Of a DNA stretch of 64,000 nucleotides, positions 6,484 to 55,645 are shown in pieces. Source of the DNA: a virus. Where the stretch lies: IMG/VR virus record IMGVR_UViG_3300033412_000010, positions 3,346 to 67,345 of that record; one strand, 5' to 3'. The notes beneath the pieces are model-generated. The model was not told the origin of the DNA and did no database searches. It saw only the letters and a list, made by a program, of their open reading frames with translations. The position numbers and the translations under genes were made by a program. Positions within the stretch are counted from its first letter, which is position 1. Every line of letters begins with the position of its first letter.

Positions 6484-6524
6484 CCCGCTCAAGTCGCCTT
6501 TAGGCTTGGCGGGTATTTTCTTTT
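6484..6524 (+). terminator. intrinsic terminator after gpF
   Basis: CCCGC..CAAG...CTTG.GCGGG stem followed by TATTTTCTTTT. Confidence 0.5.
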
Positions 6525-12114: not shown

Positions 12115-12207
12115 GTTCCAACGGTTGAAGTTCAGACTCAATTCTGTAAAGTGGTGAGCGACCCTGCTAGGTCCATAAGACAAAACGAAAATGCCTTTGG
12201 GCATGCG

Positions 12208-12257
12208 CAGGGCGCGGCGAATCTCCTAGCAGGGTCAGCCGCGCCCTGTCGTTTTTT
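12208..12257 (+). terminator. terminator-like hairpin
   Basis: CAGGGCGCGG / CCGCGCCCTG followed by T6. Confidence 0.45.
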
Positions 12258-12269
12258 ATGGAGTCGATC

Positions 12270-38316: not shown

Positions 38317-38577
38317 ATGCTGGTAATAACAAGGAAAACAGACGAAGGCGTTGTCATCGACAGAAACGTCACGGTCACGATCCTGGAGATTCGCGAAGAC
38401 AAGGTGCGAATCGGCATCGAAGCGCCTCGGGAGATCGGCGTTCACCGGTCGGAAGTCTGGGCGCAAATTCAGATGAAACAACGAGCGGCCGACAAGGCCA
38501 AGGAAACGATAAATCATGGGACTGAGCCCGAAGGAACAGGAGCGGATTGCCCAACAGATAATCCAGGTCGCGACTGA
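38317..38577 (+). CDS. csrA: carbon storage regulator CsrA/RsmA
   Basis: MLVITRKTDEGVVIDRNVTVTILEIREDKVRIGIEAPREIGVHRSEV signature. Confidence 0.92.
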   Translation: MLVITRKTDEGVVIDRNVTVTILEIREDKVRIGIEAPREIGVHRSEVWAQIQMKQRAADKAKETINHGTEPEGTGADCPTDNPGRD

Positions 38578-39788: not shown

Positions 39789-40931
39789 ATGGCGGAAGAG
39801 CAGTTGAAATATGAGTTCGTCCCGTTCGGGGAGCAACGTCAGATCGTTCTGACTCCATCCCTGGTCAGTGACATCTTGGCTGTCCGGACCAAAAAAGGCC
39901 GGGGTCCGTCGAAAGCTGATGTGCGGATCTTCCTTGAACGATGCGCGGCGCAAAGTCTCAATCCGTATACAGGCGATGCGTTTTTGATCGGCTATGATAA
40001 CGACGACGAAACAGCGACGTTCAGCCTGATTACATCGCATCAGGCGCTCCTGAAGCGGGCCGAAACGCATCCGCAGTATGACGGTCTCGAATCAGGAGTC
40101 ATCGTGATTCGCCGTTCGGCGGCGCCGGGGGCCGGTTTGCGTGACTCGAAGCCGACGCCGGAAGAGATCGAGGCAGCGAAACTCACTGCGAAGCCAATCG
40201 CGGAGGAAGCGTTTCAGCGACCGGGAGAACTGATCTATTCCGACGAATCTCTGCTGGGCGCATGGTGCCGCGTCTATCGAAAGGATCGAACGCGACCTTC
40301 GATCGCCATCCTGAATTTCTCGGTTTACAATACTGGATACAGCCGATGGAAAAAGGATCCAGGGGGGATGATCGTCAAATGTGCCGAAGCTTCCGGCCTG
40401 CGTGAAGCGTTCGCAACGACAATGGGCGGACTTTATATCGCGCAGGAAATGGACGCTTTGCAGCATCAGACTTTGGGCCTGCCTGACAATCGGGTTGAAC
40501 AGGAACTGAATCGGATTGTGATCCCCTCGGCTAACAAAATGTCTGACGATCGGCGCGAGTTCGTTCCGGCATCGAACGTCCATGAAATGCCGAAGACGAT
40601 GCAACCTGCCGGAAACGGCTCTCAGTCGACCGATACAGGGCCGGGAAGTTCCGATACAGATCGGAAGTCAGCCGAATCCGCGGGGGCCGCAAAAGGCTCT
40701 GAGGGCGATTCGCAGGCTCCAAGCTCAACAATCGAACCGACGTATCCGGAAGAAATTCGAAACTTGCTCGATGCGATCAGCCGGGCAAAGTCTGAAATGT
40801 CGCTGCTGTCGATCAAGCAGGCATGGTTGCAGGTCAAAGCGAAGTTTCCCGACATGACCGAAGTCGTCGAAGGCGCTTGGGATCGGCGGTTGGCCTTTGT
40901 TCCCGGCCTCGGCGAGAAACTGAAGCCGTGA
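39789..40931 (+). CDS. bet: single-strand annealing recombinase (Bet/RecT family)
   Basis: CAAQSLNPY, QYDGLESG, GAWCRVYRKDR, W..DPGGMIVKCAEASGLREAF. Confidence 0.85.
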   Translation: MAEEQLKYEFVPFGEQRQIVLTPSLVSDILAVRTKKGRGPSKADVRIFLERCAAQSLNPYTGDAFLIGYDNDDETATFSLITSHQALLKRAETHPQYDGLESGVIVIRRSAAPGAGLRDSKPTPEEIEAAKLTAKPIAEEAFQRPGELIYSDESLLGAWCRVYRKDRTRPSIAILNFSVYNTGYSRWKKDPGGMIVKCAEASGLREAFATTMGGLYIAQEMDALQHQTLGLPDNRVEQELNRIVIPSANKMSDDRREFVPASNVHEMPKTMQPAGNGSQSTDTGPGSSDTDRKSAESAGAAKGSEGDSQAPSSTIEPTYPEEIRNLLDAISRAKSEMSLLSIKQAWLQVKAKFPDMTEVVEGAWDRRLAFVPGLGEKLKP

Positions 40932-41112
40932 CCGATCCGTATCGGAAACCAGCGAAGACCAGGTAGCCACTATTCTGCGCGGCAACGCCATTAAACCGTT
41001 TATCACAGCAGACTTATCGGAGAAGACCACTCCGATTAGATTTCGTGCCGTAAACCATTTGACAATGCGACCGACGATCGTTCAAATCTTGATCCGTGGA
41101 ACTGAGAATCCC

Positions 41113-41235
41113 GCGAGACGACAGCAATCAATGAAAGAGCCCCTTCCGGGGGCAGCGAAGTGAATGGAAGGCGTTGCTGTCTCGCTGACCATTCGGCAGT
41201 CTCTCAACTGCCCGCTCTCCCCGGAAGGGGCTTTT
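41113..41235 (+). promoter_or_regulatory. structured leader with interleaved stems (pseudoknot candidate)
   Basis: GCGAGAC(GAC)AGCAA / TTGCTGTCTCGC and GCCCCTTCCGGGG / CCCCGGAAGGGGC interleave; two nested hairpins. Confidence 0.6.
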
Positions 41236-41248
41236 GCATTGGGGCCAC

Positions 41249-42166
41249 ATGGCGGGCGATTGGATCAAGATTGAAAAGTCGACCGCGTTCAAGCCGGAAG
41301 TTTGGCGGGCCGCCGAGATTTTGAATATTCCCCCCGATCAGGTTTTGGGACTCTGCTTTCGATTCTGGTCATGGTGCGACGATCATCTGCGCGGCGGCGT
41401 TCTACCTGGAAGCGTGGCGATTCTTGACGGTGTTTTGGGGCATCCTGGATTCGCTTCCGCGCTTGTTCAAATTGGTTGGCTGCGTGACGATGGCGGAAAA
41501 CTTCGCATCCCGAACCATGATCGGCACATGGCAAACAGCGCGAAGTCACGCGCTTCCGACGCGCAACGAGCGAAAAGATATCGTGAACGTAAACGCAGTC
41601 CTGATACTGGAAGTGCGTCGACCGTCACGGAAAACGTCACACAGCGTCACGTGACGGAGCGTGACGGCGTCACGGATGCGTCACGAGGAGAAGAGAAGAG
41701 AAGAGAAGAGAAGAGAAGACAGGAAGAGAAAACGCCGATAGCTTCGTCGTTGGAAACGACTCAGCCGACTTCGCCGACGTACCTTCAATTTCCTGTCTCG
41801 GGAGCGCCACGAATTTGGGTGCTGACGATTGCTCAGATTGAAGAATGGCAGACGGTCTATCCCGACATCGATGTGAAGGCCGAAGCGCGAAAGGCGCTGG
41901 CCTGGATCAAAGCGAACCGACAGAAGACTGCCCGCGGCATGCCGAAGTTTTTGGTGTCGTGGCTTGGCAAGGCCACAAATGATTTGCGAGGTAATGGAAA
42001 TGCAAAAACCAACGGGACCGGAGCCAATCGCCGATACGCTCGAGACTTTATCTGCGAAAATCCTCTCGAATCCTCAGAAACAGATGCCGAAATCTTCGCC
42101 GCCGCAGAACGTGCTGCGATTGAGCGGCACAATCAGGAATCCGCCAACGGAATTCCGGGATCTTGA
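41249..42166 (+). CDS. phage replication initiator protein
   Basis: MAGDWIKIEK...; SRGEEKRREEKRR linker; C-domain QTVYPDIDVKAEARKALAWIKAN. Confidence 0.78.
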   Translation: MAGDWIKIEKSTAFKPEVWRAAEILNIPPDQVLGLCFRFWSWCDDHLRGGVLPGSVAILDGVLGHPGFASALVQIGWLRDDGGKLRIPNHDRHMANSAKSRASDAQRAKRYRERKRSPDTGSASTVTENVTQRHVTERDGVTDASRGEEKRREEKRRQEEKTPIASSLETTQPTSPTYLQFPVSGAPRIWVLTIAQIEEWQTVYPDIDVKAEARKALAWIKANRQKTARGMPKFLVSWLGKATNDLRGNGNAKTNGTGANRRYARDFICENPLESSETDAEIFAAAERAAIERHNQESANGIPGS

Positions 42167-42683
42167 GGAACGAGCGGATTGGCCTGGACGACTGGCAGTT
42201 CTCAAGCAAGGCTGCTGGCCGGTCTACTTTTGGGGTTCGGTCGGTACCGGGAAGAGCTATTCGGCGTCGCTGGCCTATTGCAAATTCCCTGGAACCGCGA
42301 AGTTCATGACATGGTGCGATTTCGCGAATGACGCTGCGGAACTGATGCAAAAGAAAGAAATTACGCGGTGGATCGGAGAGCGACCGATCGAGATTTCTTT
42401 CGTCAGCTTTTGGCGAGTGATCGAGACGATCGGGCTTTTGGTGATTGACGAAATCGGGACAGGTTCCGGCGTTGGCTGGAAGGCCGAAGATCGGAACGAA
42501 CTGCTTTGGAAAGTGCTGGGATTGCGTGCAGGAAAACCGTTCATACTGACGGGGAATATTGCGCCGGGAAATCTGGAATCGTACTTCGATCCTCGGATCT
42601 ACAGCCGGATTTGCCGCGGTCAGATGGTTCAATTCCTTGGAACGGATCAGAGAAAAATCGGATTGAAGTCTCGGGTCAAATGA
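42000..42683 (+). CDS. DnaC/IstB-like AAA+ helicase loader
   Basis: Walker A GSVGTGKS, Walker B LLVIDEIG, ILTGN, RIYSRI. Confidence 0.85.
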   Translation: MQKPTGPEPIADTLETLSAKILSNPQKQMPKSSPPQNVLRLSGTIRNPPTEFRDLEERADWPGRLAVLKQGCWPVYFWGSVGTGKSYSASLAYCKFPGTAKFMTWCDFANDAAELMQKKEITRWIGERPIEISFVSFWRVIETIGLLVIDEIGTGSGVGWKAEDRNELLWKVLGLRAGKPFILTGNIAPGNLESYFDPRIYSRICRGQMVQFLGTDQRKIGLKSRVK

Positions 42684-54405: not shown

Positions 54406-54431
54406 TGATCCGACGGCGGATGTCTTGCGTT
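54406..54431 (+). promoter_or_regulatory. TGATCC-N16-CGTT motif
   Basis: TGATCC 54406-54411, CGTT 54428-54431. Confidence 0.7.
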
Positions 54432-54512
54432 GACGCTTTTGCGTCCGTAAACTCAATCCGCCGAACTGGAAATCCGGTACTGTCCGCCAACTTTGGACAT
54501 GGGGGGTGACCG

Positions 54513-55251: not shown

Positions 55252-55277
55252 TGATCCGAACGGACTGACGAAGCGTT
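55252..55277 (+). promoter_or_regulatory. TGATCC-N16-CGTT motif
   Basis: TGATCC 55252-55257, CGTT 55274-55277; precedes the structured region. Confidence 0.7.
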
Positions 55278-55282
55278 GACAG

Positions 55283-55645
55283 TCTCAGCGGTTGTGATAC
55301 GATCAGAACGTCGATTTGGCAATCGGCACAGATCACTACAACCGCAAAGTCCAATGGACTCGAAGTGGATTGAGCATGTTCGTAGTGGTCCGTGCTTGAT
55401 CCCGCCCGCCAAGGCCGAGTCCATTGGACTTTTCGCTTTGACGGCTCGCCAATTGACCGCATGAAACTGGGCATGGTCAATGAGCGGTGCAAGTCCGACG
55501 CCCGACGCCTATGCGTGACTGAGGCTGAGAGACCATCTGCGGAAGCCGGGATGAAGCCGTCATCTGCTTTCTTGCAGCACAGATCCCATACTATCTTCCG
55601 GCTCATGAAGTCGTGGGATAGTAGGGAAACTGTCGCTGCAAAAAC
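55283..55645 (+). ncRNA. candidate large structured non-coding RNA
   Basis: Four consecutive multi-stem domains including a perfect 17-bp stem (55346-55362 / 55416-55432); no convincing ORF; family unknown; strand inferred from the upstream motif. Confidence 0.5.

Follow-up and report, generated by a model that had tools for sequence, protein, structure and literature searches.

The replication initiator gene of the phage held as IMG/VR virus record IMGVR_UViG_3300033412_000010 is directly preceded by an RNA leader of about 150 nt that folds as a three-way junction (P1/P2/P3). The helices of this junction are conserved, with compensatory changes, in a homologous leader from a metagenome contig (L004), and the sense strand is the one that carries the structure. 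Located between its own putative promoter and the initiator gene, the leader may be an attenuator of the intrinsic-terminator type that gates the replication operon and is tuned by a contact between its 5' tail and a hairpin loop, a reading whose chances we judge to be even. Its promoter, its start site, termination and any switching are proposed from sequence features and predicted folds, and at present the leader is best described as a well-supported structure whose function we infer.

Genomic context of the leader

The window analysed comprises 64,000 nt of the record (positions 3,346-67,345) and covers most of a complete phage genome of 68.7 kb with terminal repeats. Nearly all genes in the window are on the plus strand, and the host is possibly a planctomycete. 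The genes around the leader are ordered as RecE-like exonuclease, RecT, a gap of 317 nt that holds the leader, initiator, DnaC-like loader and RusA, with the positions and assignments listed in Table 1. Being single-copy in the 68.7-kb genome, the leader was rejected as a repeat (REP/MITE) element.

Table 1. Features of the leader and of neighbouring genes, in window positions (position 1 is the first nucleotide of the window)
Feature	Position	Strand	Remarks
-35-like hexamer TTGACA, leader's own putative promoter	41059-41064	+	TTGAC kept in L004
-10-like hexamer TCAAAT, 17-nt spacer	41082-41087	+	AACAAT at the same offset in L004
5' box GAACTGAGAATCC	41099-41111	+	identical in L004; putative RNA 5' end
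A, 5'-tail strand of the crossed pairing, GCGAGACGACAGCAA	41113-41127	+	partner A'; 12 bp, GAC bulge
P1 5' strand	41128-41157	+	P1c 41128-33; P1a 41135-52 (holds B, A-rich start AAGAG); P1b 41154-57
B, GCCCCTTCCGGGG	41139-41151	+	exact reverse complement of B' (41219-41231), 13 bp
P2 hairpin GAAUGG/CCAUUC	41162-67/41189-94	+	6 bp; inner P2b 41170-73/41183-86, 4 bp
A', TTGCTGTCTCGC	41174-41185	+	within the P2 terminal loop
P3 hairpin GGCAGU/ACUGCC, loop CUCUCA	41195-41200/41207-12	+	6 bp; abuts P2
P1 3' strand	41213-41243	+	B' 41219-31; U-run 41232-35; P1c 3' arm 41237-42
SD-like GGGG (41241-44) and ATG (41249-51) of the initiator	41241-41251	+	GGAGGG and GTG start at the homologous place in L004
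Replication initiator gene, 305 aa	41249-42166	+	phrog_2509 (PHROG 2509), E 1.4e-41; first gene of the operon
DnaC-like loader gene	after the initiator		phrog_50
CsrA homologue	38317-38577		Pfam PF02599, E 1.2e-20; three genes upstream of the leader

Within the initiator gene (window 41618-41720), six to seven CGTCACG/CGTGACG iterons stand immediately ahead of a purine repeat of the GAAGA type, about 45 nt long, and the iterons and the GAAGA tract together are likely, from their sequence, to be the replication origin. Since this candidate origin lies inside the gene, the leader need not be the origin. No iterons were found in the leader, and an origin there was rejected because the iterons are inside the gene instead.

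Two further observations concern the regions upstream of initiator genes. The RecT stop codon is directly followed by a small hairpin, CCGAT-CCGT-ATCGG (40933-40946), the counterpart of which in L005 is CCGATACGTATCGG (2516-2535), so that it is kept across two otherwise divergent phages. In L152, the gap of 270 nt (about 1230-1500) before a distant initiator homologue holds a T-arm-like string, GGTTCGACTCC, and a tRNA gene is possibly located upstream of that initiator.

Fold of the leader

The minimum free energy of the leader is -85.2 kcal/mol (z = -5.0), none of 200 dinucleotide shuffles being as stable, and in a sliding fold scan of the 64-kb window, with 160-nt segments, it is among the two strongest outliers. 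B:B' is the core of a longer helix, P1, of 28 bp (6+18+4), which was also found as an inverted repeat (I1) with arms of 29 nt. Each of the two P1 arms (B and B') is self-complementary, a near-palindrome. P2 and P3 stand side by side within the junction closed by P1.

The end of P1 lies 5-13 nt upstream of the ribosome-binding site, and in the minimum free energy fold P1c pairs over the first two G of the SD-like sequence. The stretch from this sequence to the AUG is predicted to be about 40% unpaired, whichever 5' end is used, and sequestration of the ribosome-binding site is not clear from the models.

A preliminary description of this DNA had reported a structured, pseudoknot-like leader upstream of the replication initiator, and on re-reading the sequence all of its coordinates and pairings are correct. 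Thus, the crossed order A-B-A'-B' is present; A' is read directly in the loop of GAATGG/CCATTC, with GGCAGT/ACTGCC adjoining; and B' ends 17 nt ahead of the ATG at 41249. The position of a structured leader directly upstream of a replication initiator is likewise borne out by the z-score of the fold, by its preservation in L004 and by the phrog_2509 match of the gene.

A perfect 11-bp inverted repeat (41085-41095/41262-41272), joining the -10/start region to codons 5-8 of the initiator and having a 10-bp counterpart at codons 1-4 in L004, was considered as an outer stem that would clamp the ribosome-binding site. It was dropped because its 5' arm overlaps the -10 hexamer and precedes the putative start and its duplex energy is not significant (p 0.16-0.3). 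This outer stem could be relevant only for read-through transcripts coming from the recT operon.

No Rfam covariance model matches at its gathering score in the whole window, and in 40000-42500 the sole match with E<1 is a chance miRNA. A hammerhead, twister or pistol ribozyme, a riboswitch and a tRNA-like element were rejected, given that no core motifs were seen by eye, that there is no Rfam match and that no tRNA was found. The leader represents a new RNA motif, of which two members are known and for which Rfam has no match.

Conservation and coding strand

The second member, L004, is the one homologous leader found, on a contig of 4.5 kb (Logan assembly) whose initiator is 67% identical to that of this phage over the N-terminal half. 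A covariance model built from the leader of the window (R1) recovers it at 52.8 bits (E 1e-12), and gives no match in about 180 other loci. Genome, viral and metagenome contigs were searched with the initiator protein and a 32-sequence profile; neither these searches, nor a RecT search, nor the contigs of nine of the closer initiator homologues gave any leader homologue beyond L004, and the matches of four DNA pattern scans of viral and genome collections were all chance or coding sequence. The initiator family comprises 316 matches, most of which start no more than 35 nt after the preceding gene and have no leader; control by a leader would therefore be clade-specific.

When the two leaders are folded independently, the P1/P2/P2b/P3 architecture is the minimum free energy structure in both. 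In the alignment of the two sequences 96.5% of the pairs are standard and 13 pairs are changed on both sides, a count that comes from n=2 sequences and from an alignment fitted to the structure. None of 500 shuffles reaches the observed value, and 0-1 such pairs are left when the partners are shifted by 1-3 columns. Nine of the pairs changed on both sides are in P1; P3 has them in three of its six pairs, with none broken, and P2 has one double change among six pairs, together with two single compatible changes and, again, no broken pair. Covariation in homologous leaders, which the preliminary description had named as a check, is thus seen across this single comparison, with all helices kept.

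The changes in P1 are also informative with regard to the range of the pairing. With respect to the lengths of the C- and G-runs, the 5' arm in L004 has gained a C and lost a G, and the 3' arm has gained a G and lost a C. Each length change in one arm is thus matched in the opposite arm rather than within the same one, which favours the long-range helix B:B' over local hairpins. That helix is preserved in L004, whereas the local hairpins lose stability there (for B', from -7.1 to -4.9 kcal/mol).

The two folds contain 4 and 6 G-U pairs, respectively, and the plus strand folds better than the minus strand both here (-71.0 vs -66.1 kcal/mol) and in L004 (-62.9 vs -50.4 kcal/mol), where P2 collapses on the minus strand. 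Taken together, the covariation, the G-U pairs and the better fold of the plus strand make a sense-strand RNA, or at the least a single-strand structure, far likelier than either an antisense RNA or a site in duplex DNA. As judged from the two sequences, the leader structure is real and conserved.

A second intergenic structured element, equally strong (fold z -5.7), was found at 55270-55440 of the window. It contains a promoter-like site, TTGACA-16-TACGAT, downstream of which a perfect stem of 17 bp, AAAGTCCAATGGACTCG / CGAGTCCATTGGACTTT, encloses a branched structure; each arm of the stem is near-palindromic, and TTTTCGCTTTG follows the stem. Its design is that of the leader, but the two are non-homologous, and R1 gives no match to it.

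Putative promoter and 5' box

In the 317-nt gap, TTGACA-17-TCAAAT is the sole promoter-like site pointing into the leader, according to a scan whose consensus is sigma70-like and may not be that of the host. The spacing from TTGAC to the 5' box in L004 matches that of this phage (39-40 nt). The composite formed by TTGAC-N18-TCAA and then GAACTGRRAATCC, which is also present in L004, occurs exactly twice in the 64 kb, in both cases in an intergenic region and on the plus strand. Its second copy (54430-54475) stands ahead of a small gene, and the GAACTGRRAATCC within it, at 54463, is the only other exact occurrence of this string in the window. It is likely, from this recurrence, that the shared composite is a phage promoter together with a common operator or initial-transcript box. 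Taking into account the copy at 54430 and the 5' box, the RNA start was taken near 41095, and the 5' end of the leader RNA would thus lie at 41094-41096. A related string, TTGATCCG(N3)G(N)ACTG, is found at 6523, 41089 and 55251.

Within the 5' box, UGAGA (41103-07) is complementary to the UCUCA of the P3 loop in both leaders; this pair is invariant and, for that reason, does not covary.

The crossed pairing

In L004, UGUUAUGG, the terminal loop of P2, has its complement in CCAUAACA of the 5' tail; this pairing is located where A:A' is here and is formed by a different sequence. When partners are sought from the putative start to position +80 of the gene, the best one for the P2 loop is, in both leaders, the homologous 5' tail. 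The pairing energy is lower than expected from loop shuffles (p 0.013 here and 0.024 in L004, jointly about 0.003), and less distinct when compared with random genomic partners (p 0.06 and 0.37, jointly about 0.1), so the statistical support is moderate and depends on the null model. The pseudoknotted state and the fully nested one are about isoenergetic in both leaders, and in the nested minimum free energy structure part of A is instead engaged in a weak pairing with codons 2-3 and the flank of the SD-like sequence.

The pseudoknot put forward in the preliminary description has therefore gained from its recurrence in L004 with a different sequence, and is held back by statistics that are moderate for this phage (p 0.013 or 0.06, according to the null model). 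The odds that the loop-to-tail contact is real are, in our judgement, slightly better than even.

Proposed attenuation of the replication operon

[quoted passage not shown] P1 would then act as an intrinsic terminator, most transcripts stopping at the U-run and giving rise to a stable RNA of about 140 nt, and the synthesis of the initiator and of the loader would depend on read-through of P1, as would transcription across the intragenic iteron origin. In the leader RNA, A in the 5' tail would pair with A' in the P2 loop to form the pseudoknot, and this contact would most likely tune the speed or completeness of P1 closure, or else the openness of the start region.

The anatomy of P1 is that of a terminator: an A-rich 5' flank, a GC-rich base and then, at once, a U-rich tract. 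Here GGGGC is followed by UUUUGCAUU, and in L004 GGGGG is followed by UAUUUGUUUU, with AAGAG and GCAAAUG ahead of the stem. A scan with a terminator consensus flags 41214-41231. The terminators at the gene ends of this phage share the same anatomy (A-tract, GC stem, U-run), and one of them, at 12185-12258, is also branched. Furthermore, a hairpin with a U-run no more than 50 nt from the start was found in 6 of 16 leaders that belong to the same initiator family but are not homologous to this one, as compared with 18 of 400 control windows, and several further cases were seen by eye among such leaders. Because a terminator between promoter and replication genes recurs in this way across leaders, the leader is read as an attenuator, and the anatomy of P1 argues for transcription attenuation rather than for translation activated by a pseudoknot.

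It has to be noted that P1 is not the simple hairpin with a short loop that is looked for in an intrinsic terminator, its interior being a branched junction of 55 nt. Such an interior is atypical and could fold too slowly for efficient termination, and the U-run of this phage is short (UUUU and then GCAUU). Among the proteins of the window no antiterminator was recognised, whether of the N or Q type or other, and no nut/put-like site was recognised either. With respect to the earlier suggestion of an RNA switch that gates phage replication, a conserved sense-strand leader does stand before the initiator; switching itself is possible.

The control of the timing and amount of initiator is understood in only a few model phages and plasmids. 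The phage described here, whose hosts are a little-studied group, seems to use a terminator-like, branched RNA as the gate of its replication operon. If both termination and switching were true, this RNA would extend the few known RNA-based controls of replication by a new architecture and would constitute a compact, testable regulatory part.

Alternative explanations

The same structure could work after transcription, the junction and the pseudoknot serving, with no termination involved, as a stabiliser of the mRNA 5' end or as a protein operator. The candidate regulators are the initiator itself, through autogenous repression, and the CsrA homologue of the phage. This would suit a conserved fold that adjoins the ribosome-binding site and in which P1c takes up the two leading G of the SD-like sequence, as well as a CsrA gene situated three genes upstream and GGA motifs whose positions, in the P2 5' arm and in the centre of B', correspond between the two leaders. 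However, the leader was rejected as a CsrA target because GGA is not enriched in it (4 observed vs 4.2 expected); moreover, the SD-like sequence of this phage contains no GGA, and CsrA was not recognised on the 4.5-kb contig of L004. Control after transcription also leaves unexplained, in both leaders, the conserved U-rich tract that follows the GC base of P1, and we consider it doubtful.

A stand-alone small RNA gene has been considered as well. Its product, of about 140 nt, would act in trans, the exposed P2 and P3 loops binding the 5' tail of leader transcripts that are still nascent or have read through, in the manner of P4 CI RNA, P1 C4 or Gifsy-1 IsrK. A promoter-like site followed by a terminator-like stem is what such a gene would show, the loop complements lie within the leader itself and on its own strand (A:A' in both homologues), and the order of UGAGA and A with respect to the P2 and P3 loops suits the docking of one antiparallel tail on both. 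Sequence alone cannot separate action in cis from action in trans; there is no homology to C4/CI or any other Rfam family, and no strong second copy of the target near the ribosome-binding site. A free-standing gene of this kind is unlikely.

Attenuation and action in trans could also be combined in a dual-function, self-targeting RNA, although this is quite unlikely. In such a case, the RNA of about 140 nt terminated at P1 would dock its P2 and P3 loops on nascent 5' tails (UGAGA and A) and so decide whether the terminator closes, and the docking could topologically hinder the formation of a 28-bp helix inside a closed loop. If true, this would amount to dosage-dependent feedback on initiator synthesis, that is, the logic of P4 CI carried out by an unrelated RNA in a probable planctomycete phage.

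The preliminary description had likened the leader to those of IncI/IncB plasmids, in which a pseudoknot is needed for translation of the initiator and is blocked by a countertranscribed antisense RNA. This antisense RNA is about 70 nt long and is encoded in the leader. The mechanism requires the countertranscript, a coupled leader peptide and a pseudoknot adjacent to the ribosome-binding site that activates translation, this site being otherwise shut in a stem, as exemplified by repZ/repY/Inc RNA of ColIb-P9 and repA/repB/RNAI of pMU720 (PMC8053102). The complementarity between a loop and a distant strand, crossed in both homologues, is in line with it, and competition is conceivable, given that the alternative partner of the 5' tail in the minimum free energy fold is the flank of the start codon and SD-like sequence. 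However, the partner A belongs to the 5' tail and precedes the SD-like sequence by about 120 nt instead of lying beside the ribosome-binding site, and the region from there to the AUG has about 40% unpaired positions in all constructs. On the minus strand no sigma70-like -35/-10 pair was found in either leader (with a consensus that may not be that of the host), the fold is weaker, and P2 is lost in L004. Nor is there a conserved leader peptide coupled to the initiator: the open reading frame of the leader here has 10 codons (ATG 41131 to TGA 41163), no SD-like sequence and an end 85 nt before the initiator ATG, and that of L004, which is in another frame, has 53 codons, with no conservation of either length or sequence. 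No Rfam match points to this family either. The analogy fails, therefore, in its coupled peptide, in the location of the pseudoknot and in the unclear sequestration of the ribosome-binding site, and no minus-strand promoter-like site was recognised for a countertranscript, which leaves control of the IncI/IncB type very unlikely; what is left is a loose resemblance, namely a structured leader of an initiator gene with crossed pairing.

Least probable of all is an element acting at the DNA level (an origin, a single-strand initiation site, or B and B' as a palindromic operator pair), which would account for nested and crossed inverted repeats beside an initiator gene and for the self-complementarity of both P1 arms, seen likewise in the second intergenic element (55345-55432), and which is contradicted by ten G-U pairs over the two folds that would be A-C mismatches on the other strand, by the better folding of the plus strand in both leaders, by compensation across the P1 arms and not within them, by P2 and P3 covarying like RNA helices, and by a classical iteron array that lies inside the initiator gene, with none in the leader.

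Comparison with known systems

The IncI-alpha/IncB rep leaders resemble the one described here in being initiator leaders in which a hairpin loop takes part in a crossed, long-range pairing. They differ in having a countertranscript, for which no sigma70-like promoter was recognised in the leader of this phage, and a coupled peptide, and the initiator family of this phage is unrelated to theirs.

In phages, gene 32 of T4 is a known case of a replication gene whose mRNA folds into a pseudoknot in its 5' leader: a small H-type pseudoknot serves there as nucleation site, is followed by an unstructured AU-rich tract and takes part in autogenous translational control. The leader described here, on the other hand, has a large three-way junction and a terminator-like stem, with no known protein partner.

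Same-strand complementarity within an operon leader is shared with the CI RNA of P4 (seqA/seqB), the C4 RNA of P1/P7 and IsrK of Gifsy-1 (PMC4825925). CI RNA, itself a product of the leader, blocks the replication genes of P4 through premature termination, and IsrK targets its own read-through mRNA (PMC4825925). RNAs of the CI/C4 type are processed to a stable form, with a second target that overlaps a terminator or the ribosome-binding site of the regulated gene. A terminator in the leader makes it possible, here as well, that a short stable RNA acts on its own longer transcript. Differences with respect to these RNAs are the lack of sequence or Rfam homology and of a strong second target near the ribosome-binding site.

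Two likenesses to lambda complete the comparison. The origin of lambda is inside gene O, and the candidate origin of this phage, formed by the iterons and the purine tract, is similarly intragenic. In lambda, the terminator tR1 precedes the cII-O-P replication genes. Attenuators of the tR1 type have in common with the leader an A-tract, a GC-rich stem and a U-run placed between the promoter and the replication genes, whereas the leader of this phage is distinguished by a stem of 28 bp, by a branched interior of 55 nt with two conserved hairpins, and by the complementarity between a loop of that interior and the 5' tail.
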